Assembly: GCA_029863805.1 (NCBI GenBank)
Contig: JAOTUR010000001.1
Span: 1 to 63,358 of the forward strand
Length of the DNA: 63,358 nucleotides
Direction of reading: 5' to 3'
Source: Candidatus Krumholzibacteriia bacterium
GTDB taxonomy: Bacteria > Krumholzibacteriota > Krumholzibacteriia > WVZY01
Position numbers and translations under genes: made by a program
Notes under the pieces: model-generated
Seen by the model: the letters and a program-made list of their open reading frames with translations, nothing else
Database searches by the model: none
What the model was told of the DNA's origin: nothing
Part shown: piece by piece, positions 23,923 through 62,247 of the stretch
How the letters are laid out: the number at the start of each line of letters is the position of its first letter
Numbering within the stretch: the first letter of the stretch is position 1

Positions 23923-23929
23923 TAATCCT

Positions 23930-24901
23930 ATGGCCCGACCGTTAAAAGTACGGGACTTTGCCCCGGAAACCGACAGCTTTCTGCAAGAGGTTATTACGGG
24001 GCTTCGCAAGCCCGTGAGGGAGATTCCCAGCAAGTTTTTGTACGATGAGCGTGGTTCGCGTCTCTTCGATGAAATCACACGTCTCGATGAGTACTATCCG
24101 ACCCGTACAGAGATCATGATCTTACAGCGTTACATAGGCGAAATTGTCGAATGTATCGGTCACGGCTCCATGCTGATCGAGTATGGGAGTGGAAGCAGCG
24201 AAAAAACCAGAATCCTCTTGAATCACCTTCCGGATCTGGCCGCCTATGTCCCGATCGATATATCTAAAGAGCACCTAACGCGCTCTGCTCAGGACATCGC
24301 CGAAAAGTATCCCCATCTCGAAGTACTGCCCGTCGCTGCCGATTACAACGATTCTTCGTTTCGTCTTCCGTCCAGCTCCAAAACGGTGTCGCATCGTGTC
24401 GTATATTATCCGGGATCAACGATTGGCAACTTTCATCCGCCTGAGGCGGTCGCGTTTCTGAGAAGGATTGCATTCCTGTGTGGTTCAGGAGGGGGTTTGC
24501 TGCTGGGCGTTGACCTAAAGAAAGATCCGGCCATTCTTCATGATGCCTACAACGACCGGGATGGGGTCACGGCCGAGTTCAATCTCAACCTGTTGAAGCG
24601 TATAAACGATGAGCTCGATTGTGATTTTCAGCTGGATCAGTGGAGACACAGAGCGATCTACAACAAAGAAGCGGGGCGTATAGAGATGCACGTCGTGAGC
24701 CTGTGCAAACAGGCGGTACATCTCAACGGTGCAGTCATCGAGTTTGAAGAGGGGGATAGCATCTGGACGGAGTCATCGTACAAGTATACGGTCGAGGAGT
24801 TTGACACTATCGCGGCCAGAGGCGGGTTCGAAGTCGAGAAGGTTTGGACCGATCCCGAAGACCTGTTCAGTGTTCAATACCTGACGACTTCAATGACGTG
24901 A
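23930..24901 (+). CDS. egtD: L-histidine N(alpha)-methyltransferase EgtD
   Basis: I trimmed the track ORF 23534..24901 to ATG 23930, because the upstream part overlaps egtB in another frame. 'IPSKFLYDERGSRLFDEITRLDEYYPTRTEIMIL', 'EYGSGSSEKT' and 'YYPGSTIGNF' are EgtD hallmarks. Confidence 0.85.
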   Translation: MARPLKVRDFAPETDSFLQEVITGLRKPVREIPSKFLYDERGSRLFDEITRLDEYYPTRTEIMILQRYIGEIVECIGHGSMLIEYGSGSSEKTRILLNHLPDLAAYVPIDISKEHLTRSAQDIAEKYPHLEVLPVAADYNDSSFRLPSSSKTVSHRVVYYPGSTIGNFHPPEAVAFLRRIAFLCGSGGGLLLGVDLKKDPAILHDAYNDRDGVTAEFNLNLLKRINDELDCDFQLDQWRHRAIYNKEAGRIEMHVVSLCKQAVHLNGAVIEFEEGDSIWTESSYKYTVEEFDTIAARGGFEVEKVWTDPEDLFSVQYLTTSMT

Positions 24902-44663: not shown

Positions 44664-45896
44664 CTAGAATTCGTGCAAAAGAGTCTCCGGAAAGAAAGCG
44701 GCCCAAGCGTACCAAAACGATCGGTAAGCGAGCATCTGCGGGAGCCGCTCGCCCTTGAGAGGGCCTCCTACCGCGATACCATCGAATGTCCACAGTGAAC
44801 CGGTCTCCTCGTCTTCATACAGGGGCAGACCATGGCCTTCACGCCCCATAAAAGAGAAGGTCAGCAATTGCCCGTCGATCACAGGTTCGAATGCAACTGT
44901 TCCACCGCGGTCGCTAAAAAGCACGACGTCGACACCCCCGACTTGGTCGTTGAGAACCATCCCCGTTAAACCAGCCAGTGGGTAGGCTTTTGCCTCCGCA
45001 GGAGTATATACGCCATAAACGAGGGTTTTCTTGCGTAGCCGGCTGTCCAGCGACGATACCGGGAAGCAAAGACCGTTTACGCACAATTCATCATTAAGCC
45101 AAAACTCTTTGTAAGGGTGGTTAAAAAGGTCGTAACCACCGGGAGGAGGAGGGAAGCCGGTGTTCTCGGTCAGCACCTCAGCATTCGGATAGAGCCGCGA
45201 GAACACGCTCCACGGCAAGTCGATGTTAACCCGCTCGATTTCCAGGCAATCATCGATAAGCCCACCCCCGTACATCTGGACGTACAAGGCATCAGTGGTC
45301 CCCGCGGTTCCACGTCGGTAAACAATGAGGTTGCCGTTGTAGAGCCCAGCCGAGACTCCGTAACTCTGGCCCTTTGGCTTACCACAGGAGAACTCTGGGC
45401 GGATGAAATGCAAGGCGACATCAACAATGGGGCAGTAGGTGATGGAGGAAAACACTTGCCTGCCACCTGAGAGGTTCCAGCAGATGTTTACGACTTCATG
45501 GTACATCAATATACGAATAGGGAAACCGCGAACCTGGCCTTCCATCTCAACTGCAACCACGCGCTCGAAATCGACCAGAGGACTGTTTTTAACAGTCGCG
45601 AATTCCGGGTTGTCGATCGCAGGAATACAATCCGGGACCGGACAGCCCAAGGTGACGTTGGGGTTGTCGACGCCCTCAGGCACGATGCCCAACGGACATG
45701 GGACCTGAAAGCTCAAAGACGGATTGGGCGGTCTGTTCGTGGCCACAAACCCGTTGGGAAGCGTGGAATCACCGCCGACGGTCGTACCCGGAATGTCCAC
45801 CGAGGTATCGCTACATCCGGCGGACAAAGCAAATAACAGCAAAGCGAGCACTACGGGGATGCGGAGACTCGGGCTCAAACTAGCCAATGGACGCAT
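44664..45896 (-). CDS. DUF3179 domain-containing probable lipoprotein (Cys form)
   Basis: The signal/lipobox is '…LFALSAGC'. 'CIPAIDNPEF', 'YHEVVN', 'ITYCPI' and the C-terminal 'FWYAWAAFFPETLL' are DUF3179 hallmarks. A GAAGGAG RBS is present. Confidence 0.75.
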   Translation of the reverse strand: MRPLASLSPSLRIPVVLALLLFALSAGCSDTSVDIPGTTVGGDSTLPNGFVATNRPPNPSLSFQVPCPLGIVPEGVDNPNVTLGCPVPDCIPAIDNPEFATVKNSPLVDFERVVAVEMEGQVRGFPIRILMYHEVVNICWNLSGGRQVFSSITYCPIVDVALHFIRPEFSCGKPKGQSYGVSAGLYNGNLIVYRRGTAGTTDALYVQMYGGGLIDDCLEIERVNIDLPWSVFSRLYPNAEVLTENTGFPPPPGGYDLFNHPYKEFWLNDELCVNGLCFPVSSLDSRLRKKTLVYGVYTPAEAKAYPLAGLTGMVLNDQVGGVDVVLFSDRGGTVAFEPVIDGQLLTFSFMGREGHGLPLYEDEETGSLWTFDGIAVGGPLKGERLPQMLAYRSFWYAWAAFFPETLLHEF

Positions 45897-46269: not shown

Positions 46270-47163
46270 TTAGCGCGTGACCACGGCACTGAGGGCGTAA
46301 GTCGTTTGCGCCAAGGTATTCTTGCCCACCAGCACGTGAAAGAGCTCAAATCCAATAGAGAATCTTTCGGTTAGCGAATAGCTAGAGACTGGATTCAACT
46401 TGAGCCAGTCTTGGTCTCCGACGATCGCGTTGTTAGTCGGGGAAGACAGGTCGGGCGGGTTCTTCGTGTTTTCCACTCCGTCCAGCCGAAGTTTTAGAAA
46501 AACCGGCCCGAGCGTGTAGCCACTCTCCACGTTGTAGACGACCTCGTCGTTAAGGCGCCCGCCACGGAGACGGTAGCCGATGCCCGCACTGATGTACCCG
46601 GTGAGGGGGTAAAGGCTCTTGCCCACGTAGACATGGATCTCGCCGTCCACATGGGCTGTGCCCAGCGGTGGCAGTGGCTGTCCGTTTTCCACCGGGTTTT
46701 CTTCGTACCCCAAAGGGATTTTTACACCCGCCTGCGCGGATAGCGCGATCGGCTCGAGAAGGATCTGCCCTCGCAACGATGTCCACAGATCGGCCACCCC
46801 CCCCAGCGTGCGCGTCACTCGAACCGGTGGAAGGCCTGGCCCGATGATTTGGGTTTCTCTGGTGGTGAGGATCTTGAGCGGAGCGGTGGCGACAATCGTG
46901 TATCGATCCGTGAGTCCGTACTCCACGTAGCCCGTATACGATACATCGCGAAACCACGCCCCTGTCACCGATAATCGACTCGCAAAGATCTCCTGTCTGT
47001 CACCCTGGAAGTCCAACTCCTCGGTCGCGAACAGATAGCTAGTGAAGAACTTGCCATAGTAATCGCCTCTGGCCTGAGTCCAGGCTTGGGCTGCGGTATC
47101 GCCGGCGAGTACGGGCGAAAGCGAAAGCCCAATTATCACGGCCAATATTCGGACACGGCGCAT
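46270..47163 (-). CDS. putative outer-membrane beta-barrel protein
   Basis: There is a signal peptide (…VLAGDTAAQA) followed by alternating-hydrophobicity strands rich in Y/G/T/R. No family is recognised. Confidence 0.45.
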   Translation of the reverse strand: MRRVRILAVIIGLSLSPVLAGDTAAQAWTQARGDYYGKFFTSYLFATEELDFQGDRQEIFASRLSVTGAWFRDVSYTGYVEYGLTDRYTIVATAPLKILTTRETQIIGPGLPPVRVTRTLGGVADLWTSLRGQILLEPIALSAQAGVKIPLGYEENPVENGQPLPPLGTAHVDGEIHVYVGKSLYPLTGYISAGIGYRLRGGRLNDEVVYNVESGYTLGPVFLKLRLDGVENTKNPPDLSSPTNNAIVGDQDWLKLNPVSSYSLTERFSIGFELFHVLVGKNTLAQTTYALSAVVTR

Positions 47164-47530
47164 GTGGTGATCCTCAACCCAAGTATCGTATTGGTGTTTG
47201 CAATTCCGGGTGGGCAGGCGGAAAAGCGTGCCTCTGGTACTCAGCGGGTATTAACGCTCCCCATTGGATCTAACCCCATCCAATCAACTCAATGTTACGC
47301 ACTCACCGTTGTTTTGTGAAGCAAAAAACCATCGAGTGACATCGGTGTCTCGCCGCTCCTGGCCTCCGTTACTCGTGCAACGGAGCGCCGTTCTCATAAC
47401 ACGACAAGACGTTGGCACGACGGTGCCGGGTTCGATTCGATGGCATGTTGGTTGGCCGCCGCTGGTCTACGTTGCCTCAAGAGGCTGTGCCTGTTATATT
47501 GCGCAGTACTTGCCCCGGAAAGGAGATCGC

Positions 47531-48592
47531 TTGCAGGCCAATCACTCACAAGAGTCGCGCATAGCATTTGTTGTCGTGTTATTCATGTGGGGTAATCTCG
47601 GGACATCTGTGGTCTCCATTGCCCACGCACAATCGGAATCCGCTCCGCCGGGCGTGCAACTCTTGCTTCCCAGGGGCGGAATCCCAGCCATCTTTGCACC
47701 GGAGTTTGTCTCTGCCGAAGCGGCGAGAATCGCTGATGACGCATGGATACTGGGTGTTGTCATCGATGGTGAAGCGCACGCGTACAGTCTAAACCTCTTG
47801 AATTCTCACGAGATCGTGAACGATAGCTTTGGCGAACTTCCGGTCGCGGCGGTCTGGTGACCACTAGCCAATACGGGCGTCGTGTACGACCGTCGTTACC
47901 ATGGCAAGGTGCTGGCGTTTGAAGCTTCCGGTGGACTGTTGAACGCAGCGCTCGTCATGCGCGACCGCGAAACAGATAGCTGGTGGTCGATCATGACCGG
48001 TGATGCGATTGGAGGCGAGCTGGATGGAACGCGCCTAAAAGAGCTGACCGTCGGTGAAAAAGCTCAGTGGCGCGACTGGAAACGTCGCTACCCCCGCACA
48101 AAGGTGCTTTCGGTAAAGGGCAAGCAGCATGTCGATCAGGACCCGTACGAGAGTTACTACTCGAGCAAGGATGGTTTCCGTGGTCTCTCGACACCGGATA
48201 CCCGATTGCAGAACAAGGAGGCGGTGTACGCGTTTCAGATGAACGGCATCGCGTATGCGGTCCCACATTCGGCAATCGAGGGGGGAAAGGTGTTCGATGT
48301 TGGACATACCACGGAGGTGTTTCTCTACCGAGAATCGGGATCCGACATGCTCGCATCTACCATTGCCTATGTTTCTGAGAAGGGGGGAGAATCGAGCCGA
48401 TTTGACAAAAGGAAGGGTCGATGGCGAGACTTGCTGACGGGATCCGAGTTTTCCAAAGACATCGGATTTCGGGCACAACAGGTGGACCAGCAAGCCGATG
48501 AGTCCGTTCAGCAGTTGCAGAGGCTCGACGGCTTCGACACATTTTGGTACACCTGGTCGACAACTCACCAGGGGGTGACGATAATAGAGTAA
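47531..48592 (+). CDS. secreted DUF3179 protein with a single in-frame TGA at 47858-47860 (candidate selenocysteine codon, or otherwise a nonsense pseudogene)
   Basis: Track ORFs 47264..47860 and 47882..48592 are in the same frame and are separated only by one TGA. Joined, the sequence reads '...GIPAIFAPEF...SHEIVNDSFGELPVAAVW[TGA]PLANTGVVYDRR...FDTFWYTWSTTHQ'. The TGA aligns with the Cys of 'ITYCPI' in the paralog at 44664..45896. The proposed start is TTG 47531, behind AAGGAGA, and gives the signal peptide '...SIAHA/QS'. Confidence 0.7.
47855..47901 (+). promoter_or_regulatory. candidate bacterial SECIS-like hairpin spanning and following the TGA
   Basis: The lower stem is UGGUGAC (47855-61) with GUUACCA (47895-901). 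The upper stem is 47876-82 with 47887-94, 7 bp with one bulged C and one G.U. The apical loop is UGUA (47883-86) and starts 22 nt after the UGA. It was folded by eye only and is modest in stability. Confidence 0.25.
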
Positions 48593-48602
48593 AGGTGTGC
48601 AG

Positions 48603-49064
48603 TCAACCCGGTCGTGACCTGCCTGCTTCGGCAACGATCCAGTCGATAGCCCTGAGATAACTCTGGTAGCCAAGGCCGACTATCTGCTGGCGACAAACAG
48701 GTGCTATCACCGACCGACTTCGAAACTCCTCCCTCGCCTGAATGTCGCTCAAATGGACCTCGACCGCTGGGACACCGACCGCCTCGATCGCATCACGAAT
48801 TGCGAAGCTGTAGTGGGTGTATGCACCCGGATTGATAATGAGAGCCTGGTGAGGATCCTGTGGGTCTTTGGCAGCGAGTTCGTGAATCTTATCGATGATG
48901 TTACCCTCGTGGTTGTTCTGATACAGGGTGACGGTTGCTCCACGTTTTTTTGCGTGCTCCACGATGATCACATTGATCTCCGCGAGAGTCCTGGTTCCAT
49001 AGATCTCCGTGTTGCGGGTGCCCAATAGGTTCAAATTCGGGCCATGGATTACAAGGATCTTCAT
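48603..49064 (-). CDS. aroQ: type II 3-dehydroquinate dehydratase
   Basis: 'MKILVIHGPNLNLLGTR...YG', 'NHEG' and 'INPGAYTHYSFAIRDA' are present. ATG 49064 lies 2 nt after the aroK/B stop. Confidence 0.9.
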   Translation of the reverse strand: MKILVIHGPNLNLLGTRNTEIYGTRTLAEINVIIVEHAKKRGATVTLYQNNHEGNIIDKIHELAAKDPQDPHQALIINPGAYTHYSFAIRDAIEAVGVPAVEVHLSDIQAREEFRSRSVIAPVCRQQIVGLGYQSYLRAIDWIVAEAGRSRPG

Positions 49065-49066
49065 GC

Positions 49067-50755
49067 TCAAGCTACCCCCACCGTCGATAGGATTTCGTCT
49101 ACCGACACATCGTCTACGACGCGAGCGCTGCCGATGCCCGTGGGCAGAACAAAATGAAGCCGGCCATTCCGGACTTTCTTATCGAGCGAAAGGCTGCGCG
49201 TGAACGTCTCGCGATCGAAGCGCTCACATTTGATGGGAAGCCCGCACCAGGATAAGAGGTAGCGGGTTCGGTCGAGAATATCTTTGCCGGTGGTCCCCCG
49301 CACTACGGCGATTTGAAGAGCCGCGATCAGACCAATCGATACTGCTTGACCGTGTTTAAGACCACCGTAGCCTGCTGATGCCTCTAACGCATGCCCGACC
49401 GTGTGTCCAAGATTGAGGGTTCGACGGCGGTCCTTCTCGTAAGGATCCTCGTTGACGATCTGACATTTGATCCTTGCGCTTTCCAGCACACACCGTTCAA
49501 GGAAATGAGTGTTGCGGAGGCGAGTTTGAGAATCGCTGGAGGTTTGTTCCTCGAGGTAATTGAAGAGCGTCTGTGAGCCTACAAGCGCGTATTTTACAAC
49601 CTCAGCCATTCCGTTTGCCACTTCCGTCAATGGAAGCGTGCGCAATGTGCAGGGGTCGACGACTACAAGATGAGGTTGATAGAAGCTTCCGATCAAATTC
49701 TTTGCCAGGCTGTGGTTGACACCGACCTTACCGCCAATGCTGGAATCCACCTGGGCCAGCAACGTTGTTGGGACATGCACCAAAGGAACTCCCCGCATAT
49801 AGAGCGATGCTACGAATCCACCAATATCGCCGGTGACACCACCCCCCACCGGAATGATGGTTGCATCCCGTCGTGCACCGCTATCGATTAGACGATCGAT
49901 GATGTCACTCGTCTGATCCAGGTGTTTCCGTGCGTCTCCATCTTCGACCTCGAGCAGGGTAGAGGTGATACCAGCGAGACGCAAAGAGGCTTGAAGTTGG
50001 GTGGTAAACAATCCTCGCGTGGTCTCTGGCATCAGTAAGAAGGCGTGACCCGTCAAACCCAAGTCGATCAGGTAATTGCCTAGCTTTGACAGCGAGCCGC
50101 GACCGATATCGACACGTGACACGCCGTACCGCCCACGCGGTGTCGAGTTATCACCATCGGTCGATCCGGCCCCGGGGTTTACGAACAGCGACTCACTGGG
50201 AAGTTCGAGCATCGCCGCAATCTGAGCGGCAACCTCAACCGGTCTACGGTTTGTTGTGTTCACTGTGTTCTTGATTTTGCTATAGAGGTCTGCGCGTTCC
50301 TTTACAAGTGCAGAAATGCGCTCGCGAAGCGCATCACCGGACAGGGCGACCCCGTCTTCACACAGAAGAGGTCTCTTTCGACTGAATTGCAGGCGCTGGT
50401 ACAGGGCTTCCGTCGTGGTCTCGAGCAACACGATGTGCGCGGTCTGCGCAAACAGATCGAATGTCGCAGTGTCCAGTAATGTACCACCTCCGGTGGCGAT
50501 GACCGATCCGCACGTGTCTTTCATGTCGGCACAGAGCGACTTCTCCATGTCACGAAAATAACTCTCCCCGTGCCTCTCGAAAATCTTGGCTACTGGTAAA
50601 CCGGCTGACTTCTCGATCTCCGTGTCAGTGTCGATAAATTCCAACCCCAGCATATCGGCAAGAATCTGGGCGACGGACGTCTTGCCCGTTGCCATGAAAC
50701 CCGTGATGACAATCCTCGGTGGCGCTAGACTATCGGACTTGGTCATCTCTTGCAT
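49067..50755 (-). CDS. aroKB: bifunctional shikimate kinase / 3-dehydroquinate synthase (AroK-AroB fusion)
   Basis: The N-terminal part 'IVITGFMATGKTSVAQILADMLGLEFIDTD' is shikimate kinase. The C-terminal ~360 aa carry 'GGGVTGDIGGFVA', 'VPTTLLAQVDSSIGGK' and 'LNLGHTVGHALE' and are DHQ synthase. I trimmed the start to ATG 50755, which overlaps the aroC stop (TGATG). Confidence 0.9.
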   Translation of the reverse strand: MQEMTKSDSLAPPRIVITGFMATGKTSVAQILADMLGLEFIDTDTEIEKSAGLPVAKIFERHGESYFRDMEKSLCADMKDTCGSVIATGGGTLLDTATFDLFAQTAHIVLLETTTEALYQRLQFSRKRPLLCEDGVALSGDALRERISALVKERADLYSKIKNTVNTTNRRPVEVAAQIAAMLELPSESLFVNPGAGSTDGDNSTPRGRYGVSRVDIGRGSLSKLGNYLIDLGLTGHAFLLMPETTRGLFTTQLQASLRLAGITSTLLEVEDGDARKHLDQTSDIIDRLIDSGARRDATIIPVGGGVTGDIGGFVASLYMRGVPLVHVPTTLLAQVDSSIGGKVGVNHSLAKNLIGSFYQPHLVVVDPCTLRTLPLTEVANGMAEVVKYALVGSQTLFNYLEEQTSSDSQTRLRNTHFLERCVLESARIKCQIVNEDPYEKDRRRTLNLGHTVGHALEASAGYGGLKHGQAVSIGLIAALQIAVVRGTTGKDILDRTRYLLSWCGLPIKCERFDRETFTRSLSLDKKVRNGRLHFVLPTGIGSARVVDDVSVDEILSTVGVA

Positions 50756-51891
50756 CAAAGGATTCCTCGCTTTGCAAGACCGGTTACATAACTTCCGTAG
50801 TTCGCTTTCATCTGATCGATTGAGTCGCCACCAAATTGTTCCACCATAGCCAGCAGGAGTTCCCATGCCACAACGCCCTCGGCGATCACGGTCAAAGCGG
50901 GGAGCACACATACATCGGAGCGGACAAAGGGGCTCTTCGCCGACTTCATCATTTTCATATCGTACGAGGAAAGGCGCTTCAATGAGGTGGGCAGCGGTTT
51001 GGCATAGAGGCGCATGATGATGTCCTCTCCGTTGGTCATACTTCCTTCGATGCCGCCGGCGTGGTTCGTCTTGCGAGACACACGGCCGCGGTCAAGATAC
51101 ATCGCATCGTGTGATTCAAAACCCTTTAGCCTGTGAGTCTTGAGTACATCGCCGATCTCGACCGCCTTCACGCTCTGGATGCTCACCAACGCCCCAGCCA
51201 GACGCGCATCGAGTTTGCGGTCTGATTCAACGTGCGTTCCAAGACCAGGAATCAAGCCGGTAGCCACTACTTCCACCCTTCCCCCCAGTGAGTTGCCCTC
51301 CTTCTTGGCGACCCGGATCGTCTCGATCATCTTGTCGGCCGCTTGTTTGTCAGCACAGTACAGCGGTGACCGAGACACGCTTCGCTTTAGCTTTGCAAAC
51401 GGGACAGGGGCTACGTCCGCATCCACACCCCCGATTGATGTAACGTGGCCCAGTATTTCTATCGCAAACAACTTCAAAACACTCTTGGCCAGTGATCCGA
51501 AGGCGACCCGCATCGCCGTTCCCCTCGCGCTCGACCGCTCCGAGATCGGGGGCACCTCGTCGAAACCGTATTTCAGACAACCCGCGAGGTCGGCGTGTCC
51601 AGGCCGTGGCACGCTACCCAGCGCGCCACCAGGTTTACCCGACACGGTTCGTCCCAAATTCTGCACAAGAATGGCGATCGGTGCTCCTGTCGTCCTACCT
51701 TTCCACAAACCACTGACGATCTTGATGCTATCGCGCTCTATATTCTGGCGAGCACTCCGGCCGTACGACTTTCTACGACGGCTAAGATCGCGTTCGATAT
51801 CTCGTACCGATACGCGGTGCCCGGCCGGGAAGCCTTCGATAATGCCCACAAGAAGCTCGCCGTGCGAGTCACCCGCGGTAAGAGATCTCAT
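50755..51891 (-). CDS. aroC: chorismate synthase
   Basis: 'MRSLTAGDSHGE', 'RPGHADL' and 'ERSSARGTA' are present. Confidence 0.95.
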   Translation of the reverse strand: MRSLTAGDSHGELLVGIIEGFPAGHRVSVRDIERDLSRRRKSYGRSARQNIERDSIKIVSGLWKGRTTGAPIAILVQNLGRTVSGKPGGALGSVPRPGHADLAGCLKYGFDEVPPISERSSARGTAMRVAFGSLAKSVLKLFAIEILGHVTSIGGVDADVAPVPFAKLKRSVSRSPLYCADKQAADKMIETIRVAKKEGNSLGGRVEVVATGLIPGLGTHVESDRKLDARLAGALVSIQSVKAVEIGDVLKTHRLKGFESHDAMYLDRGRVSRKTNHAGGIEGSMTNGEDIIMRLYAKPLPTSLKRLSSYDMKMMKSAKSPFVRSDVCVLPALTVIAEGVVAWELLLAMVEQFGGDSIDQMKANYGSYVTGLAKRGIL

Positions 51892-51974
51892 ACGAACATC
51901 TCCCCAATTTCATTCTGATCCGTGTAACGTTTCGTGCATGACGCGAATTTAATAGGGCGGCCTGTACTCTTGCA

Positions 51975-52865
51975 TCATTTTGTTTGCGCCACCCCGCCAT
52001 CCGCGATATGCGCCGAGACGGCACCATACATCTCGGTGAGTGAAAAATCCTTGCCAGTCCAAAGACGAAATCCTGCTCTTGCCTGCGCGACCAGAGGTGC
52101 CAAACCGTCGACTGTCTTGGCGCCCCTATGCCTGGCAGCTTTGATAAACGCTGTTTCGCGAGGATGGTAAACAAGATCGAGGCAGCAGTGCCTGTCTCGT
52201 ATCACCGAGTCATCGGTCAGCAGTCGGCCTTCAGTAAAGCCGACCATACCGACGGTTGTCGCATTGATGATTATGTCCACCAGGTCGAACACGCCCCTGT
52301 CCCGAGTCAGGTTCGCCACGAGATAACAGTCTATGCAACAACCCGGGAACGCCCGACGATAACGATCTACCGTTCGCTGTGCCTTTTTCGCATCACGTAC
52401 GCCGAAAGTTACTGCCCGAGCCCCCGCTTGCAGAAGTCCGTAAGCGACGGCACGCGCGGCACCACCGCCACCAAAAACGAAGACCCGCTTGCCGGACACT
52501 GGAGTAGCCCCCAGAACTTCCAGTGCTTGAGTGGTGCCGACCGCATCGGTATTGTCTGCTAATATGCCTTCGTCCGTAAATCGCAATATGTTGACTGCCT
52601 CGATCAGGTCAACAGCCGGTGTGGCTCGGTCCGCCAGTGATCGTGAGAGCTCTTTCAAAGGGTACGTGACATTGGCTCCGACAAAGCCACGGCTGCGCAA
52701 CCCGTGGATCGCATCCGGCAGGCGTTCCATCGACACAGCAAAAGCCGAATATACTGCATCCAGTCTACATTCGCCAAAAGCCCGGTTCATGATAAAGGGA
52801 GAGAGGCTGTGATCGACGGGATCGCCGATCAGGCAGTACAGTTTCTTGTGCACGATACTATCCAC
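51975..52865 (-). CDS. aroE: shikimate dehydrogenase
   Basis: 'YCLIGDPVDHSLSPFIMN', 'GANVTYPLK' and 'VFGGGGAARAVAYGL' are present. Confidence 0.9.
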   Translation of the reverse strand: MDSIVHKKLYCLIGDPVDHSLSPFIMNRAFGECRLDAVYSAFAVSMERLPDAIHGLRSRGFVGANVTYPLKELSRSLADRATPAVDLIEAVNILRFTDEGILADNTDAVGTTQALEVLGATPVSGKRVFVFGGGGAARAVAYGLLQAGARAVTFGVRDAKKAQRTVDRYRRAFPGCCIDCYLVANLTRDRGVFDLVDIIINATTVGMVGFTEGRLLTDDSVIRDRHCCLDLVYHPRETAFIKAARHRGAKTVDGLAPLVAQARAGFRLWTGKDFSLTEMYGAVSAHIADGGVAQTK

Positions 52866-52894
52866 CTGGCTGGACGAGTATGGTCTGCGAGGCT

Positions 52895-54160
52895 CTAGCC
52901 CGATACGGTTTGCAGATCTTTAAAAAACGACGGGTACGATACGCCAATAATGTCACTCCGCTCGATATGCGTTTGCCCTGTTGCCAGCAAGCCGGCGATG
53001 GTCATGGCCATAGCAACGCGGTGATCTCCAAGCGAAGAGACCTTGTTGCCCTTTAGCCGTGTGGGACCACGTATCACAAATCCGTCGTCACGCGCCTCTA
53101 TGTCGGCGCCCATTCGCTTAAGATTGCCGACGATGGCCGCGATCCTGTCGGATTCCTTGTATCGCAGCTCTTTGGCGCCGCTGACGGTTGTTTCCCCCTC
53201 CGCCTGAGTTGCGGCGACGGCGATGATCGGCAACTCGTCAATCAAAGACGGGATTAGCTCGTGACCAATGGTGGTACCTCGCAGCTCGCTAGACTTGACC
53301 ACGATATCGGCGATAGGTTCTTCGAGAAACGAGGCGTGATTGATCAGCTCAATGCTGGCCCCCATCTCCTGCAAGACTCTAATGGCGCCGGTGCGGGTGG
53401 GGTTGATACCCACTGTGGGCAGATACAGTTCGGAACCAGGCACGCACACGCTGGCGACGACGAAGAATGCTGCCGACGACAAGTCTCCAGGTATCTTTAC
53501 CTGAGCGGCTCTTGGCACCGAGCCTCCGCGAATCGCGATTTTGTGGCCGTCGATTTCAACAGGCACGGCCATAGCAGCCAGAAGGCGCTCTGTGTGGTCA
53601 CGGGTCGGGACTCGTTCTTCAACAACCGTAATCCCTTCGGCCATCAGTCCCGCTATCAGGATCGCTGATTTGACTTGTGCGCTCGCCACCGGCGGCTGGT
53701 GTGAAATCGCTTTCAGGCGGCCACCCCTGATCGTGATGGGTAACCGTCCCCCGGGAGCGGTGGCTATGTCGGCCCCCATCTGGCTCAGCGGCTCCACGAT
53801 ACGATCCATCGGACGCCCCCGCAGGGATTCGTCGCCATCGATCGTTGTCTCTCCGGGAAGGCCGGCAAGTAATCCCGAGAGCAAGCGAGCTGTCGTACCA
53901 GAATTACCCGCGTCGATATGTTTTCCAGATACAAACTCTTTCGAGAGAACAAGTAAACGTCCGTCTGGCATTTCTTCAATAAATGCACCCAGCGATCTCA
54001 AACAAGAAACTGTACTGTAAAGGTCAGCGCCAGCCGGCGCTCCCTCGACAACATGCTTGCCTTTGGCCATGGAACCGATGATGAGCGCACGGTGTGCAAT
54101 CGATTTATCGCCCGGCACTCGCACGGTACCTCTTAGTCGTTCAGCAGGTTGCACAAGCAT
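52895..54160 (-). CDS. aroA: 3-phosphoshikimate 1-carboxyvinyltransferase (EPSP synthase)
   Basis: 'VPGDKSIAHRALI', 'GNSGTTARLLSG', 'LRGRPM' and 'DHRVAMA' are present. Confidence 0.95.
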   Translation of the reverse strand: MLVQPAERLRGTVRVPGDKSIAHRALIIGSMAKGKHVVEGAPAGADLYSTVSCLRSLGAFIEEMPDGRLLVLSKEFVSGKHIDAGNSGTTARLLSGLLAGLPGETTIDGDESLRGRPMDRIVEPLSQMGADIATAPGGRLPITIRGGRLKAISHQPPVASAQVKSAILIAGLMAEGITVVEERVPTRDHTERLLAAMAVPVEIDGHKIAIRGGSVPRAAQVKIPGDLSSAAFFVVASVCVPGSELYLPTVGINPTRTGAIRVLQEMGASIELINHASFLEEPIADIVVKSSELRGTTIGHELIPSLIDELPIIAVAATQAEGETTVSGAKELRYKESDRIAAIVGNLKRMGADIEARDDGFVIRGPTRLKGNKVSSLGDHRVAMAMTIAGLLATGQTHIERSDIIGVSYPSFFKDLQTVSG

Positions 54161-54403
54161 CCAGGCATTCCTCGTCGCATAATATCTGCCACGGAAGAGC
54201 CACGTGGCACAAAAACGTCATCTCCGTCGCCTATCGCGCCCCGAGAAACACGAGCCCCCCAGCCGAGTGTATTCTCCGGCGGGACACAAGGGGCCAAAGC
54301 GATGGCGCATGAGCCACCGACCTGACCGAGAACGATGTCTGCAGAATACTGGATTTGCGATTTCATCCTCAGGAAAGGGCTCTTGCCGTTGCCCAGCTTC
54401 AGC

Positions 54404-55444
54404 CTAGCCTACGTGTGTCCCGGCACGCTGAACTCGACGTCCCACTGCAAGGGCGATGGGATCGATCTCTTTCATCATATCCCGAAACTCGGCAAACGAG
54501 AGACTTTGAATACCGTCGCTCAGAGCATTCTCCGGCGACGGGTGTACCTCGACAATGATTCCGTCCGCACCGGCGGCCACAGCGGCGCGCGCCGCGGCGG
54601 GGACGAACTCCCGGTGACCGGTGCCGTGGCTTGGATCCACGATCACTGGTAAATGACTGTTCTTCTTGATTACGGGTACGGCGGAAATGTCTAACGTATT
54701 GCGCGTGGCCTTTTCAAACGAGCGAATTCCACGCTCGCACAGTAACACCTGAGAGTTTCCATTCGACAAGATGTATTCTGCGGCTAACAAAAGTTCTTCT
54801 ATCGTAGACATCATGCCACGCTTGAGTAACACCGGTTTTCTTACCTTGCCAACCGCTTCCAGCAACGCATAATTTTGCATGTTTCTCGCACCGACCTGGA
54901 GAATGTCTGCATACTTGCCGACCAGGTCGACGAGTTCCGGAGATGTGACTTCGGTTATGATGGGTAGGCCCGTCGCATCACGAGCCTCGGCCAGCAACTT
55001 CAAACCCTCCTCACCGAGACCCTGAAAGCTATAGGGTGAAGTTCGAGGTTTGAAGGCCCCACCCCGTAAGATGTGTGCGCCTGCCTCCTTGACTGCCGCG
55101 GCCGTCGCCAGGATTTGATCTCGTGACTCGACAGCGCACGGGCCCGCCATCACCACAATATTCTCACCACCGATCGTTACCCCGTTTACTTTTACGACCG
55201 TTCGACCCGGTTTGAACTCTCTATTGACCAGCTTGAAGGATTTGGTGATAGGCACCACCTGTTCGACTCCCCGCATGTCGGCCAATTCGGACAACCGGGG
55301 GTTTTCCTCGCCACCTATCACACCAACGATGGTTTGCTCAGGTCCTCGGGAAGGGTGTGGTTTCAGACCAAGGGCCTCGATGGACTTGATGACCGCACCG
55401 ATCTCGGCTACCGATGCGCCACTTTTCATCACAACCAGCATCAT
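54404..55444 (-). CDS. 3-deoxy-7-phosphoheptulonate (DAHP) synthase, class I-beta with N-terminal ACT/ferredoxin-like regulatory domain
   Basis: I trimmed the start to ATG 55444 ([11 protein letters not shown]..., GGGAGA upstream). From there the protein is colinear with my recollection of Thermotoga maritima DAHPS (…GPCAVES…[23 protein letters not shown]…LLKRG…CERGIRSFE…NTLDISAVP…DPSH…). Confidence 0.9.
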
Positions 55445-55547
55445 AACTATTCTCCCATGTGATCGGTTCTCAACCCTTGCGTGCTCGCGGCGGTTGGCAA
55501 CCCGCCAAAATCCATTGTTCGAACAGCGACAGCTCTCAGCTCGAACT

Positions 55548-56393
55548 TCACGCGAATCGGTCTCGCCGAGAGTTTGATCTGCCCGCCAGTCGTCCGGCGC
55601 GGGATTCAATGGCTGCTTTTACTTCTGCCAAAAAAGCATGCACGCTCCTAACCCCCACGCTATTGGATGCCGCAGACTCGATCAATCGGATCAACGCACT
55701 ACCGATGATAACTCCATCGCTGTGGGCAACGGCAGCCTTCGCCGTCCGTATATCGGAGATGCCGAAGCCGACGTAAAGCGGCAGATCCGTTGCCGCTCGA
55801 ACCCTCGCAACAAACGAGGAGATCTCTCCCGAGATCGGTGAGCGCACACCGGTAACTCCAGTAACGGAGACGAGGTAAAGGAATCCGTCCGCTTCGTCGG
55901 CGATGGCTTCGATGCGGTCGTCGTTGGACGTCGGCGCGATAAGATCAACATAGACAATATCTCTGCTCTTCAGGGCAGACCGCACCATGTCAGATTCTTC
56001 GAGCGGCAGGTCGGGGACTATTACCCCTGCTACGCCGGCGGCCGACGCCAGCTCAGCGAAGTGTCCGTCACCCATGCGTAGTATTGGATTATAATAACTC
56101 ATAAGTACAATCGGCGTGGTGATTTCTTTTGCGATGTCTGCGGCGAGCTCGAGGCTATGTCGCAGCGACATGCCGTTGTCGAGGGCTCTCTTGGACGAAG
56201 TCTGGATCAGGGGACCATCGGCGATGGGGTCCGAGAAGGGTATGCCAATTTCTATCACGTCGCAGCCGGAGGCATGTGCCGACCACACCAGATCCAAAAA
56301 GGTCTTTTCATCCGGATAACCGGCGGTGAAAAACGCCACCAGCGCTTTGCGTCCACGTTCCTTGAGCGCATGCGTGACTTGGTGTAACTTCAT
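55548..56393 (-). CDS. trpA: tryptophan synthase alpha chain
   Basis: '[12 protein letters not shown]', '[15 protein letters not shown]' and 'GFGIS' are present. The start overlaps the trpB stop. Confidence 0.95.
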
Positions 56394-57559
56394 CCGCCAA
56401 CCTCGCTGCGCACACTGTCTATATCTTTATCGCCACGACCGGAGAGATTGACGATGATGATTTGGTCGTGTTTGGAACCTGTGCTCAAGCGTTGCTTGAC
56501 AAAGGCTAGCGCGTGGCTGGATTCCAGCGCAGGTATAATGCCCTCCAGGCGCGAAAGCTCCCGAAACGCCTCCAGCGCCTCCTCGTCGGTTACGCTCGCA
56601 TATGTCACGCGTCCCGTGTCCTTTAGATAACTGTGCTCCGGACCGACGCCGGGGTAGTCGAGACCCGCGGATATCGAGTGGGCCAGCTGAACCTGGCCAT
56701 CCGTATCCTGAAGCAGATAGCTGAGCGAGCCGTGAAGCACGCCCGGAGACCCCTTGCACAAGGCGGCCGCATGACCGGCACTGGATCCACCTGCCTCCAC
56801 TCCGAAAGCTTGTACCGAAACATCATCCACAAACGCCGAGAACATGCCGAGGGCGTTAGAACCCCCGCCGACACAGGCGACGAGCCAGTGGGGAAGTCGC
56901 TGCTCGAGGTCGAGAATTTGTTGGCGCGTCTCTCGACCGATGATCGACTGAAAATCGCGGACGATAGTGGGGTAGGGGTGTGGCCCCACCGTTGATCCAA
57001 TAATATAATGGGAACTAGTCACGCTGGTAACCCAATCACGGATCGCTTCATTCGTCGCGTCTTTCAGCGTACGGCTGCCGCTTGCTACCGGTATGACTTC
57101 GGCCCCAAGCAACTTCATGCGCGTAACGTTGGGCTTCTGGCGCAACATGTCCACCTCGCCCATGTATACCGTGCAGGTCATGTCAAAAAGCGCAGCTACG
57201 GTCGCCGTTGCCACGCCGTGTTGCCCGGCACCGGTCTCCGCGATGATACGAGTCTTGCCCATCCGACAAGCCAAAAGCGCCTGACCCAGACAATTGTTGA
57301 TCTTGTGAGCGCCCGTGTGGTTGAGATCTTCGCGCTTGAGGTAAATCTTCGAGTCTTTGCCGTAGTAAGTGCTCAGACGACGTGCGAGGTACAGCGGTGT
57401 GGGACGGCCGGAATAGGTCTCCAACAAGTGCTGAAGCTGAACACGAAATGCGGTGTCTCCATTCGCGTCGTCATAGGCAGCTTCCAACTCGACAAGACAA
57501 GGCATTAGCGTTTCGGGTACGTACTGACCACCGTAAATGCCAAATCGGCCGCGGCTCAA
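56390..57559 (-). CDS. trpB: tryptophan synthase beta chain
   Basis: 'GQYVPETLM', '[15 protein letters not shown]' and 'GGGSNA' are present. Confidence 0.95.
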
Positions 57560-58203
57560 CGTCGAGCTTCCTGGATAAAACGATTCAGAGTCTTTGCATC
57601 CTTGACGCCGGGTGCTTTCTCAACACCTCTGGCGACATCGATGCAATACGGCCCCACATGGTGTACTGCCTCTCTTACATTTGCGGCTGTGAGAGCACCG
57701 GCCAGGAAGATACGGTACCCTGTGCGCCGCAAGCCAGCAGCGGTCGACCACAGGCGTTGCTGCTGACCGTTAATGGGGCTTGAGATATCGCTTCTTACCC
57801 CCCGGTTCTTGTCCAGATCAAGCAGAAAGTAGCTGATTCGCGTGTATTCCTTGAGTCTGGTGGGGTCGTCGAGTTGTCTGCTGCCGAGCGCCTTGATGAT
57901 CGGTAGCGAGAGGCGCGACAGCAGGGTGTCACAGTACGCCGGCGATTCATGTCCGTGCAACTGAACCAAGTTTACGCGCGACGCACAACTCAGCTCCACA
58001 ACGTCTGCAAGCGGCGCATCCACGAAAACACCTATGAGCATAGCCTTGGGAACCGCCCTACGGATTAATCGAGCGGTGTCCACATCTACGCGGCGCTTGC
58101 TGTCGGCGAATATCATGCCCAGATAGTCGGCGCCCAGGGACCAGCTCAGCTTGGCGTCCTCGGGTGAAGTGATTCCACAAATCTTGATTCGCGTGTCTCT
58201 CAT
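57556..58203 (-). CDS. trpF: phosphoribosylanthranilate isomerase
   Basis: 'IKICGIT', 'GADYLGMIF' and 'VQLHG' are present. There are 4-nt overlaps on both sides. Confidence 0.9.
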
Positions 58204-59018
58204 ACCGTTCTACTTTTCTTAACCCTGTCGCAATTGTCGGTCGCCCGTGACTTGCCAAGAAGTGTCCGCAGTACCTTGCCCGGATCTGACGACTCGAGCA
58301 AAGCCCCTCCAACCAAGAACGCATTTACGCCCAGCTGGCAAAGTTCCTGGATATCGCGGCGGCTACGGATACCGCTTTCCGATACGATCAACGCGCTATT
58401 GCCCACAAGGCCAACTAGATTCCTGGTGGCGTCGAGAGAGACCTCCAGGGTATCGAGGTCGCGATTGTTGATGCCAACGATCTCGGCACCCGCCTGTGTA
58501 GCCCGCAATAGATCGCGGCGCGAGTGGATTTCGACCAGGGCCCTCATTCCAAGTTGATGTGTAACGGCAAGCAGGGACCTGAGACGATCGGCGCTCAGAA
58601 TTAGACTTATCAAGAGAACCGCGTCGGCTCCGAAAGCGCGCGCCTCGTATATTTGGTACGGATCAAAAAAGAAATCCTTGACCAAGACCGGTAGCGAGAC
58701 CTGGTTGCGTATGGCCTGCGCATCGGCCAACGACATGCCAAAGTGTATCTCATCGGTCACCACCGATACCGCACAGGCCCCATTGCGCTCATAAACCGCG
58801 GCAAGGCCATCGATGTGTTGGGCCTGTGTGAATTCGGCAACTCGCGGTGACCGCTTCTTGACTTCGGCAATGATCTTGTCACCTCCAAGCAGCGCACCGT
58901 AGAAGTCCCGGGTGGGCCCAACATCGACGAGGCTGCGGAGCTTCTCCAACGGTAACGCATCCATTTTGCGCGCAACCTCGCGCTTTTTCTGTCTCATGAT
59001 CTCGCTAAGAAAACTCAA
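58200..59018 (-). CDS. trpC: indole-3-glycerol phosphate synthase
   Basis: 'IIAEVKKRSP', 'VLVKDFF', 'GADAVLLI', 'LVEIH' and 'IGINNRDL' are present. Confidence 0.95.
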   Translation of the reverse strand: MSFLSEIMRQKKREVARKMDALPLEKLRSLVDVGPTRDFYGALLGGDKIIAEVKKRSPRVAEFTQAQHIDGLAAVYERNGACAVSVVTDEIHFGMSLADAQAIRNQVSLPVLVKDFFFDPYQIYEARAFGADAVLLISLILSADRLRSLLAVTHQLGMRALVEIHSRRDLLRATQAGAEIVGINNRDLDTLEVSLDATRNLVGLVGNSALIVSESGIRSRRDIQELCQLGVNAFLVGGALLESSDPGKVLRTLLGKSRATDNCDRVKKSRTV

Positions 59019-59031
59019 CCTTTACTCCTCC

Positions 59032-60066
59032 TCAACCACGTCGGCCATTTCGCAGGGCGTCCGTTACCCTTCTCAGCTCGTCGAGCACGCGAAGCGCACG
59101 GCCAGAATCAATCGTCTCCTGAGCTATCGCGGCACCCTGAACCAGGTTTCTAGCTTTGTCGGTAAGTACCGCAACGAAGGCTGCGTTGAGCACTACCACG
59201 TCCCTTCTCGGCCCCTTTTTTCCACCCAGTATGTCGCGAATATGTCCCGCGTTCTCCGCCGCGTCGCCACCGGACAGCTCGGTGATATCCGCCCGTTCGA
59301 GCTCGGCATCTTCCGGTGTAAATGTCATCGTGTGCACGTGGCCATTCTCTAGAAGACTGACCGTGGTGTCTCCGCTAAGCGACACCTCATCGGTGCCGTC
59401 ACGTCCGTGAACGACAAAAACCTTCTCCGAACCGAGAGATCGCAACACCTTGGCCACCACCTCGGTCAGGTCCTCGCGGAACACACCAATCAGTTGCCGC
59501 TTTACGCCCGCCGGGTTTGCCAAGGGGCCCAGGAGATTAAAGACGGTGCGAATACCCAGGTCGCGTCTCACCGGCGCCACGTGCTTCATGGCCGGGTGAT
59601 GATGTGGAGCGAAAAGGAAACCAATGCCCACCCCATCGATCAGCTGTGCGACCGCCTCCGGCTCGATGTCGACCGATATTTGCAGAGCCTCGAGCACATC
59701 CGCGCTGCCACAGCTCGATGAGACCGCGCGGTTGCCGTGTTTGGCCACCGGCACCCCCATGCCGGCGGCAACCAGCGCTGTGGCGGTGGAGATATTGAAG
59801 GTGTGTTGGGCGTCTCCACCGGTGCCACAGGTATCGATCACGCCATTGCGGCGTGGCAACACATGGACTGACCGTGCACGCATTGCGGACACAAAACCGG
59901 TGATCTCATCCACGGACTCGCCCTTTACTCGCAGCGCCGTCAGTATTGCAGCCAACCGTGTCGGACTGATGTCACCGGACATCATAGACACCATGAGCGA
60001 CTCCGCCTCCGCCCGCGTTAAGTCTTGTCTATCAACGAGCTTTGCAAGCAAAGCTTTTGTCGTCAT
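59032..60066 (-). CDS. trpD: anthranilate phosphoribosyltransferase
   Basis: 'DTCGTGGD', 'FNISTA' and 'KHGNRAVSSSCGSADVLEAL' are present. Confidence 0.95.
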   Translation of the reverse strand: MTTKALLAKLVDRQDLTRAEAESLMVSMMSGDISPTRLAAILTALRVKGESVDEITGFVSAMRARSVHVLPRRNGVIDTCGTGGDAQHTFNISTATALVAAGMGVPVAKHGNRAVSSSCGSADVLEALQISVDIEPEAVAQLIDGVGIGFLFAPHHHPAMKHVAPVRRDLGIRTVFNLLGPLANPAGVKRQLIGVFREDLTEVVAKVLRSLGSEKVFVVHGRDGTDEVSLSGDTTVSLLENGHVHTMTFTPEDAELERADITELSGGDAAENAGHIRDILGGKKGPRRDVVVLNAAFVAVLTDKARNLVQGAAIAQETIDSGRALRVLDELRRVTDALRNGRRG

Positions 60067-60076
60067 CTGTAAATCC

Positions 60077-60685
60077 TCACGGTTTGATCGGCGCGGTGTA
60101 GAATGGTCCCGACATCGACGCGGATACCTGGAGAAAATTTGTCAGTAGCTTCAGACCCTCCACCGTCAGAATTGATTCGGGATGGAACTGAACTCCTTCA
60201 ACAGGTTTGCTCTTGAGTCGAACACCCATGATCTCCCCCTCGGACGTATAGGCGGACACGTCGAACTCAACGGGCACCTTTTCCTCGCGCGCGATGAGCG
60301 AGTGATAGCGCGTTGCGAGAAAAGGATTTGACAAACCTTCGTAGATCGTCTGTCCGTCGTGATAAACTTGTGACACCTTGCCGTGCATGACACGATCCGC
60401 ACGTTCGATGACGCCGCCGAAAGCGGTCACGATACATTGGTGACCCAGGCAAATCCCCAGTATGGGTGTGCTGTCGAAAAACGACCGCACGAGGTCGACG
60501 GAAATACCCGCATCTTCCGGCCTGCCCGGGCCCGGTGAGATAATTATGCTGTTGGGCTTGAGCTCCCTCGCCTTGCTGACGTCGAGGGCGTCATTTCTGA
60601 AGACCTCAAAGCTGTGCCCCAGCTGACCAAGCGCCTGCGCTATGTTGTAAGTGAATGAATCATAATTATCGATTAGAAGATGCAT
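60077..60685 (-). CDS. trpG: anthranilate synthase component II (glutamine amidotransferase)
   Basis: 'LIDNYDSFTYN', 'ILGICLGHQ' and 'VQFHPES' are present. Confidence 0.9.
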   Translation of the reverse strand: MHLLIDNYDSFTYNIAQALGQLGHSFEVFRNDALDVSKARELKPNSIIISPGPGRPEDAGISVDLVRSFFDSTPILGICLGHQCIVTAFGGVIERADRVMHGKVSQVYHDGQTIYEGLSNPFLATRYHSLIAREEKVPVEFDVSAYTSEGEIMGVRLKSKPVEGVQFHPESILTVEGLKLLTNFLQVSASMSGPFYTAPIKP

Positions 60686-60700
60686 GCCATGCGCCTTTCT

Positions 60701-62179
60701 TTATGAATCCTTCTCGGCAATCGACACGGCCCTGCGCAGCGCCTGAATCTTGTCGAGCGTTTCTTTGTACTCGGCTGCGGCATCCGAATCGGCGACTATC
60801 CCGGCGCCACCCTGAACATAATACTGATCCCCTTTCATCACGATTGTGCGAATCGTGATACACATGTCCATATCACCCTGGGCGCCAAAGTACCCCACAG
60901 CCCCGCCATAGGGGCCACGTTTCTCGCGTTCCAAATCAGCGATGATCTCCATGGCACGTATCTTCGGTGCGCCTGTGAGCGTACCTGCTGGGAACGCCGA
61001 CCTGAGAAGATCGAACATGTCCAGATCACTCTTCAAAACACCCTTCACCCGCGACACCAGATGCATCACGTGTGAGTATTTCTCAACCTGCATCAGCGAC
61101 TCCATGTTCACGCTACCCGGCTCACACACTCGCCCCAAATCATTGCGACCTAGATCGACAAGCATGACGTGCTCGGCCCGCTCCTTTTCATCCGTTTTGA
61201 GGTCCGTTTGCAGGTGTCTGTCTTGCGTCGCATCGGATCCTCGGGGACGAGTGCCAGCGATCGGGTTTAGCGTGGCCTGCCCTTTGTCAAGCTTGACCAA
61301 CATCTCGGGCGACGAGCCAATCAGCTGGAAATCACCAAAATTGATATAAAACATGTAGGGCGAAGGATTGAGAATTCTAAGCGCACGGTATATCCGAAAT
61401 GGTGATGCTTTGGTTGTGCCGGCAACTCGCTGCGACAGGACGATCTGAAAGGCGTCACCATCTAGTATATGTTCCTTGGCTTGCCCAACCAGTTGTTCGA
61501 AATGCTCTCTAGTCATGTTGAATTGCTCACTCACACGTTCGGCCTGCTCGACGGGCGCCTGTTCATCCAGGATAAGTGGGGAGTTCAACGCCTCAAACAG
61601 TGTCCGCACCTGCTTTTGAGCGCTCGCATAGGCCAGTTCGGCATCGGCGTCATTCTGTGGTATGGCGACGATTTCTATTTCGCTCTTCACGTGATCGAAA
61701 ACCACCAGCGCGGAAGGAAAGAGAAAAAAATAATCGGGCAGCCCAAGCTCATCGCGAGGCGGAGTCGGAAGCTTCTCGAAGTATTTGGCCAGATCGTACG
61801 ACATATAGCCGACGGCGCCGGCGATGGGTCCGGTAATGTCCTCGGTCCTCGGTAACGGCGATCGGCTAAGCTCCTCTCGCACAGGCGCCAAAGGATCCTT
61901 GTCGTCGAGCGACTCGGTGCGAACATCGTCACCCCTTTGCATTTGTAGCATGCCAGCCTCCAGCTTGACGGTGGCAAAGGGGGACACACCGATAAAAGAA
62001 TACCGACCGACCTGGATTCCGCGTTCCACACTTTCCAAGAGAAAGGTAGCCCCCAGCTCTCGTAACTTCAGGAACACAGAAACCGGCGTTTCCAGGTCGG
62101 CGGGCATTCTCCTGCGCAATACGGTGTATTCCCCCTGTCCCGCACTCTTCAGGAACTCTTGCAACGATGGGGTGACCAT
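60701..62179 (-). CDS. trpE: anthranilate synthase component I
   Basis: 'LLESVE…GRYSFIG', 'NPSPYMFY', 'GTLTGAPKIRAMEII' and 'GPYGGAVGYF' are present. I trimmed the start to ATG 62179 (MVTPSLQEF...), because the longer track ORF would run through the terminator. Confidence 0.9.
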   Translation of the reverse strand: MVTPSLQEFLKSAGQGEYTVLRRRMPADLETPVSVFLKLRELGATFLLESVERGIQVGRYSFIGVSPFATVKLEAGMLQMQRGDDVRTESLDDKDPLAPVREELSRSPLPRTEDITGPIAGAVGYMSYDLAKYFEKLPTPPRDELGLPDYFFLFPSALVVFDHVKSEIEIVAIPQNDADAELAYASAQKQVRTLFEALNSPLILDEQAPVEQAERVSEQFNMTREHFEQLVGQAKEHILDGDAFQIVLSQRVAGTTKASPFRIYRALRILNPSPYMFYINFGDFQLIGSSPEMLVKLDKGQATLNPIAGTRPRGSDATQDRHLQTDLKTDEKERAEHVMLVDLGRNDLGRVCEPGSVNMESLMQVEKYSHVMHLVSRVKGVLKSDLDMFDLLRSAFPAGTLTGAPKIRAMEIIADLEREKRGPYGGAVGYFGAQGDMDMCITIRTIVMKGDQYYVQGGAGIVADSDAAAEYKETLDKIQALRRAVSIAEKDS

Positions 62180-62213
62180 GACATCCCTTTCCCGGGACAC
62201 GTGCCCGTAAACG

Positions 62214-62247
62214 AAAAAACCCACTTCCTTTCTTTCCGGAAGTGGGT
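62214..62247 (-). terminator. intrinsic terminator of the trp attenuator
   Basis: On the minus-strand RNA, ACCCACUUCC (62247-62238), a 9-nt loop GGAAAGAAA and GGAAGUGGGU (62228-62219) are followed by UUUUU. This is a perfect 10-bp stem with a U-tract, about 35 nt upstream of the trpE ATG and inside a divergent intergenic region. Confidence 0.8.

Follow-up and report, generated by a model that had tools for sequence, protein, structure and literature searches.

The TGA at positions 47858-47860 of the window (the whole stretch of 63,358 nucleotides analyzed here) most probably encodes the selenocysteine (Sec) of an exported DUF3179 selenoprotein, a reading to which we assign a probability of about 0.92 on the basis of the sequence and its comparison with relatives. 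Under this reading, positions 47531-48592 would form a single gene whose UGA is recoded to Sec during translation. Gene callers divide this gene into two open reading frames (ORFs). This is an ordinary case of a gene being split by the caller rather than a discovery, given that DUF3179 has been listed as a selenoprotein family since 2007.

The gene is intact on both sides of the TGA. The ORFs 47264..47860 and 47882..48592 share one frame and lie 7 codons apart, and the TGA is the sole stop between them, which agrees in coordinates and spacing with what the earlier note on this DNA had described. The most plausible start of the joined gene is the TTG at 47531, which is also where the N-terminal fragment begins in the Logan gene call. 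Translation from this TTG gives 353 amino acids, the length that had been proposed for a complete DUF3179 protein. With U replaced by C, the joined product matched PF11376 with an E value of 7.1e-62 (209.9 bits versus a cutoff of 27) and covered profile positions 2-287 of 292, and it is thus a full-length member of the family. The IPAI..PEF, HEIVND, and FWYTW motifs that had been noticed previously were all located in the product. No NCBIfam model matched the joined protein, and there is not a single Cys among its 353 residues. The protein had also been called secreted with a signal peptide. Read by eye, the N terminus is RIAFVVVLFMWGNLGTSVVSIAHA/QSE, with a basic n-region, a hydrophobic core, and an AxA site, and full-length Cys homologs carry N-termini equivalent to this putative signal peptide. 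These features make the signal peptide a probable one, and export is something we infer from them. The main features are collected in Table 1.

Table 1. Features of the probable DUF3179 selenoprotein locus and of related loci (window coordinates unless a locus is named)
Feature	Position	Strand	Remarks
Complete DUF3179 selenoprotein gene (probable)	47531..48592	+	353 codons; Sec = codon 110; ends in TAA; no further internal stop
Shine-Dalgarno-like AAGGAG	47520..47525	+	5 nt 5' of the TTG start; direct sequence reading
UGA, probable selenocysteine codon, motif W-U-P-L-A-N	47858..47860	+	Faces Cys in the paralog and orthologs
Probable Sec-pathway signal peptide, residues 1-33, ending AHA/QSE	47531..47629	+	Inferred from sequence
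SECIS-like hairpin ACGG/GC/GUCG-UGUA-CGAC/CG/UCGU	47873..47896	+	Fold -7.1 kcal/mol; comparative support
Cys-form DUF3179 paralog, 25% identical	44664..45896	-	ITY-C-PIV at the Sec-equivalent site; PF11376 E 2e-51; alignment A3
Outer-membrane-type protein, 297 aa, exported, distant PF13557 (Phenol_MetA_deg) relative	46270..47163	-	BLASTP E 5e-12
tRNA-Sec (anticodon TCA), downstream of orthologous DUF3179 gene	L022:5588-5684, L026:6158-6254, L068:4017-4111, L079:2810-2904		tRNA scan
ECF-type sigma-70 factor gene	L006:2088-2726, L026:2097-2711, L035:2223-2810, ~11 more loci	divergent	Neighbor search

Comparison with relatives decides between a nonsense mutation and a Sec codon. A scan that kept one genome per species gave 80 loci, 79 of which contain the motif W[C/*]PLAN. 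Rather than being unique to this allele, with TGC or TGT in close relatives, the TGA was found at exactly the Sec codon (AAVW-U-PLAN) in 78 of these 79 loci, the exception being a locus with TGC (L018). At least 76 open codons precede the TGA in each of the 78 loci, and nearly all of them continue for about 220 to 250 open codons without a further stop, so that the additional downstream frameshifts or stops that would have spoken for decay are largely missing. Shorter downstream frames were found in L023 (179 codons) and in L004, L005, and L063, which run off their contigs. The genomes with the TGA are labeled Acidobacteriota/Thermoanaerobaculia, KSB1, Calditrichota, Latescibacterota, Krumholzibacteriia, Gemmatimonadota, Nitrospira, Polyangiaceae, and others, and the four Krumholzibacteriia loci (L002, L003, L025, and L035) have all kept it. 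The window organism itself is nearest to Candidatus Krumholzibacteriia when judged by its chorismate synthase, which is 74-75% similar to that of named MAGs. Alignment A1, in which the window protein is included, has 37 invariant columns, every one of them past the TGA, and the window sequence retains every family-invariant residue there. When 5.8 billion proteins were searched, the 119 other closest clusters included roughly 87 fragments of about 215 to 244 aa that cover only the last 61 to 69% of the query, which indicates the same split site as in the window gene. Two relatives depart from the general pattern. The frame after the Sec TGA in L023, a Gemmatimonadota MAG that is the closest relative (66% identical), ends at another TGA after 179 codons; this early end may mark a second recoded TGA or may result from truncation or faulty assembly. 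A 272-aa protein from a Halieaceae MAG (P0080) aligns on both sides and lacks about 26 residues spanning HE-VND...W-C/U-PLAN; the gap may be real, as a deletion, or may stem from a gene model in which the Sec region was skipped.

The residue that faces the TGA in homologs is Cys. The alignment of the TGA with a Cys of the paralog at 44664..45896 had been pointed out before and was confirmed both there ('ITYCPIV') and in Cys-form orthologs ('VWCPLAN'); C110 was invariant in 30 full-length homologs. The Cys-form loci L018 and L085-L087 have TGT or TGC at this codon (TGC in L018), in contrast to the TGA of the window gene. The window gene thus has an in-frame UGA opposite a conserved Cys (a Sec/Cys pair), and the coding sequence is conserved on either flank. 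The Cys-form paralog and orthologs (P0004, P0015, P0042, and L018) share with the window protein the same domain, the H-E-x-V-N-D and F-W-Y-x-W motifs, and an exported architecture, whereas the paralog has extra Cys residues and insertions relative to the window protein.

We also examined the RNA immediately downstream of the UGA. The E. coli fdhF-type SECIS, as modeled by bSECISearch, is a coding-region hairpin just 3' of the UGA with a short upper stem of 4 to 7 bp and an apical loop that carries a conserved G and U about 20 to 25 nt from the UGA. The earlier note had placed a hairpin with a GU-containing loop about 22 nt past the UGA, and we located it at 47873-47896. It consists of a 4-bp upper stem (GUCG/CGAC, 47879-47882 with 47887-47890), a 2x2 internal loop, and a 4-bp lower stem, and its apical loop, UGUA (47883-47886), starts 22 nt after the UGA. 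G47882 and U47883 were invariant across relatives. The window hairpin thus resembles the fdhF-type SECIS in its placement, the G/U at the loop, the spacing of about 22 nt, and the short upper stem, and it differs from it in being very short and weak and in occurring in two alternative registers across the family, with SelB binding only putative. The folding check that had been proposed for about 47850-47910 gave a divided answer. The hairpin forms, but the minimum free energies of 47850-47920, 47858-47900, and 47870-47896 were no better than those of shuffled sequences (z of -0.12 to +0.86), and as a result, single-sequence folding can neither support nor refute a SECIS element. The structure is accordingly a stem-loop directly 3' of the UGA; its apical loop has a conserved G, its energy z score is nonsignificant, and its support is comparative instead.

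RNAalifold recovered only three consensus pairs from the 79-sequence alignment. We then specified by hand an 8-pair helix (columns 22-29 with 35-42 of this alignment, A2) and tested it. Among the 79 sequences, 79% of the cells of this helix were paired, compared to 20 to 30% in most slid controls; a control slid by +3 reached 50%, which reflects the alternative pairing register. Compensatory changes were present at three pairs (24-40, GC>UA; 26-38, CG>GC; 27-37, CG>UA/AU), and none of 500 shuffles matched the observed pairing or covariation score, although this covariation is confounded by protein constraint given that the hairpin sits inside a conserved coding segment. Synonymous entropy was the lowest in the gene at the stem codons, with 0.21 at codon +6 and 0.10 at codon +9: 59 of 61 sequences use GCC for the Ala at +6 (entropy of 1.4 to 1.8 in other Ala columns), and 78 of 79 use TAC for the Tyr at +9 (0.6 to 0.95 in other Tyr columns). 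The hairpin sequence of the window is identical in its closest relatives (L001-L003, L005, and L023). Sec forms read T(A/G)VVY across the hairpin codons, whereas Cys-form orthologs read AAAVY, TAIVY, AGVVY, or AGLVY. An Rfam scan of the whole window at gathering thresholds gave no match, and the hairpin has no Rfam family. Judging from these patterns, the hairpin is most likely a short SECIS of the bacterial type, located within the N-T-(A/G)-V-V-Y-(D/G)-R codons.

If so, the hairpin would act by recruiting SelB with GTP and Sec-tRNA(Sec), and this recruitment would lead to insertion of Sec at residue 110 rather than termination. The product would then leave the cytoplasm via the Sec translocon, as its predicted signal peptide suggests. 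Sec110 would replace the first Cys of the family C-P-x-C motif, which reads U-P-L-A in the clade of the window protein. Given that the mature protein is devoid of Cys, Sec110 would be its only selenol or thiol, and we infer that it could serve as a single nucleophilic, redox, or metal/chalcogen-binding center and not as one half of a CxxC-type dithiol.

The machinery for such decoding was sought near the gene and among the relatives. Neither selA, selB, selD, nor a tRNA-Sec gene was found in the window or the 10 kb beyond each of its ends (about 83 kb of the 138-kb contig), where we annotated about 30 more ORFs of the window and the two 10-kb contig extensions with Pfam and consulted the gene table of the locus. 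ARAGORN detected no tRNA in the window or in either extension. No other TGA-interrupted gene was present in the window, where the scan returned only gene ends and shadow frames, and a literature search on Sec use in Krumholzibacteriota yielded nothing relevant. About 7 kb past the right end of the window lies a gene for a 766-aa HdrA-like FAD/Fe-S oxidoreductase (L084:1-2218, on k141_1150391). HdrA is a selenoprotein in some organisms; the gene at this locus was called as one intact ORF and presumably represents the Cys form. Among the relatives, a tRNA scan of 84 loci (about 0.5 Mb) returned only six tRNAs, four of which were tRNA-Sec genes lying 0.1 to 2.3 kb from the DUF3179 selenoprotein gene (L022, L026, L068, and L079). 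This frequency is far above chance and shows that the DUF3179 family resides in Sec-decoding genomes. It also indicates that selC is physically linked with the DUF3179 selenoprotein gene in one lineage, which comprises KSB1-like MAGs and MAGs labeled Cytophagia. Among the 41 Pfam-supported genes of the window, 22 end in TGA, which makes it the commonest stop codon there; the codon is therefore not globally reassigned.

Three other explanations of the TGA were weighed against these data. The alternative raised in the earlier note was a very young pseudogene, in which a one-step TGY-to-TGA nonsense mutation in a Cys-form gene has left the downstream part untranslated. Such a history would be in keeping with the splitting of the gene by gene callers, with the missing Sec machinery in the 83 kb examined, and with a hairpin that is thermodynamically undistinctive. 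However, a young pseudogene cannot account for a stop that has been kept at one column across phyla, and the recurrence of the TGA, between intact flanks, in 78 of the 79 related species effectively refutes this explanation. The window gene has, moreover, kept all the invariant residues encoded past the TGA, and the RNA-level constraint falls exactly downstream of it, so we consider a pseudogene highly improbable. The gene could also be a relic that derives from a Sec-using lineage and persists in an organism without Sec machinery, where the UGA now terminates translation. Both the absence of Sec machinery from the roughly 83 kb of the contig and the absence of a second selenoprotein gene from the 63-kb window would fit a relic. 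Loss of the Sec machinery is normally soon followed by replacement of Sec by Cys or by decay of the gene, whereas here the ORF is intact on both sides, the putative SECIS is the same as in the closest relatives, and the relatives within Krumholzibacteriia keep the TGA. We regard a relic as very unlikely.

An error of sequencing or assembly, or an alternative code in which TGA is read as Trp or Gly, has next to no probability in our assessment. The window does come from a metagenome assembly, and nothing more specific favors either idea. The ENA assembly, a further assembly of the same organism (Logan SRR7134473), and 78 other genomes all have this TGA, which argues against an error, while the frequent use of TGA as a stop in Pfam-supported window genes, together with homologs that have Cys and neither Trp nor Gly at the aligned position, argues against an alternative code. 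Comparison of the assemblies did reveal small differences: relative to the ENA contig k141_1150391, the window has A instead of C at 43925 and instead of G at 49302, and it has a single-base difference from the Logan contig at 49302. Both positions lie outside the DUF3179 gene.

With Sec insertion as the preferred reading, the question is how much of it is new. The earlier note had presented DUF3179 as a new selenoprotein family, and this claim fails. The selenoprotein tables of two reviews (PMC9312934, from 2022, and PMC13188914, from 2026) contain the entry 'DUF3179 domain-containing protein, pfam11376, UxxC/T', and both credit it to Zhang and Gladyshev 2007 (PMC1976440). NCBI likewise names the homologs P0002 and P0042 'DUF3179 domain-containing (seleno)protein'. 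The window protein resembles the known family in its Pfam domain, in the position of Sec at the first Cys of C-P-x-C, in having one Sec per protein, in the Sec/Cys pairs among homologs, and in the SECIS-like hairpin just 3' of the UGA. It departs from the UxxC/T motif of the review tables in that U-P-L-A is found in the window protein, in all 78 Sec-form relatives, and across all 79 sequences examined from the clade, and, unlike the family as tabulated there, the window protein has no Cys at all. We treat UxxC/T as descriptive and not as defining; the NCBI '(seleno)protein' name is applied to P0002 and P0042, which are CPLA proteins. The hosts differ too: uncultured Krumholzibacteriota-like bacteria, Acidobacteriota, KSB1, Calditrichota, and others in this clade versus the deltaproteobacterial worm symbionts of the 2007 study. 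Our literature search returned no experimental evidence of Se incorporation in any DUF3179 protein.

For annotation, the consequence is that the two fragments, 47264-47860 and 47882-48592, should be joined and recorded as a single selenoprotein gene. Most database entries of the clade are split in this way too, as seen in the C-terminal fragments that make up roughly 87 of the 119 closest clusters. The biological gain is small, given that DUF3179 has been recognized as a selenoprotein family since 2007, and the new points are minor ones: the UxxA motif of the clade, its near-fixed Sec, the Cys-free window protein, and a predicted fold without a match in the PDB. Even so, this widespread environmental UxxA clade, which is overwhelmingly Sec-form and has its putative SECIS in the N-T-A/G-V-V-Y-D/G-R codons, offers a clean candidate for studies of DUF3179 function.

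The AlphaFold2 model of a Cys-form homolog (P0004) was mostly beta, with a pLDDT of 88.8 and a pTM of 0.84. A Foldseek search of the PDB with this model gave no real match (best TM of 0.20, E of 0.01), and a profile search of PDB sequences gave no match. A search for conserved neighbors across the 80 loci did not find a partner gene common to most of them, and the neighbors that did appear were lineage-restricted: an ECF sigma factor, a MetA-like outer-membrane protein, and tRNA-Sec. The gene at 46270..47163 lies between the two DUF3179 genes of the window, where it diverges from the selenoprotein gene and precedes the paralog, and orthologs occupy the same position in L005 and L023. Its product had no direct Pfam match; its BLASTP partner is a PF13557 protein encoded directly before the Cys-form DUF3179 gene in L087. 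Together with the paralog at 44664-45896, it may constitute a module that pairs an outer-membrane protein with DUF3179. The DUF3179 selenoprotein gene of about 14 of the 80 species is preceded by a gene for an ECF-type sigma-70 factor, which lies close by in divergent orientation; it is absent from the window. These outer-membrane and ECF sigma neighbors fit an envelope-located role without defining one.

The Sec codon was found in 78 of the 79 species of the U-P-L-A clade, which span at least seven phylum-level lineages. A speculative and on balance unlikely extension of our reading is that this clade forms a separate group that depends on Sec almost obligately. Its protein would be an exported enzyme working through a single selenol (the window protein lacks a resolving Cys), and the confidently predicted all-beta fold has no detectable solved homolog. 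If this were true, the clade would represent an unrecognized extracytoplasmic selenoenzyme chemistry. A link to envelope functions is possible, since a MetA-like outer-membrane protein is encoded next to the gene in the closest relatives and an ECF sigma factor is encoded divergently in about 14 loci.

Two further gene groups in the window were recorded. On the plus strand, positions 22597-24901 contain an EgtB-like gene (DinB_2 plus FGE-sulfatase) followed by an EgtD-like histidine methyltransferase gene (Methyltransf_33, E of 4e-112), which looks like an ergothioneine-type biosynthesis pair; the longest ORFs of the two overlap by about 390 nt in different frames, and the start of the second is thus probably further downstream. 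On the minus strand, positions 48603-62224 hold an unusually complete, one-strand aromatic amino acid supercluster (aroQ, an aroK-aroB fusion, aroC, aroE, aroA, DAHP synthase, trpA, trpB, trpF, trpC, trpD, trpG, and trpE), and these aro genes apparently flank the DUF3179 gene on the contigs of relatives as well.
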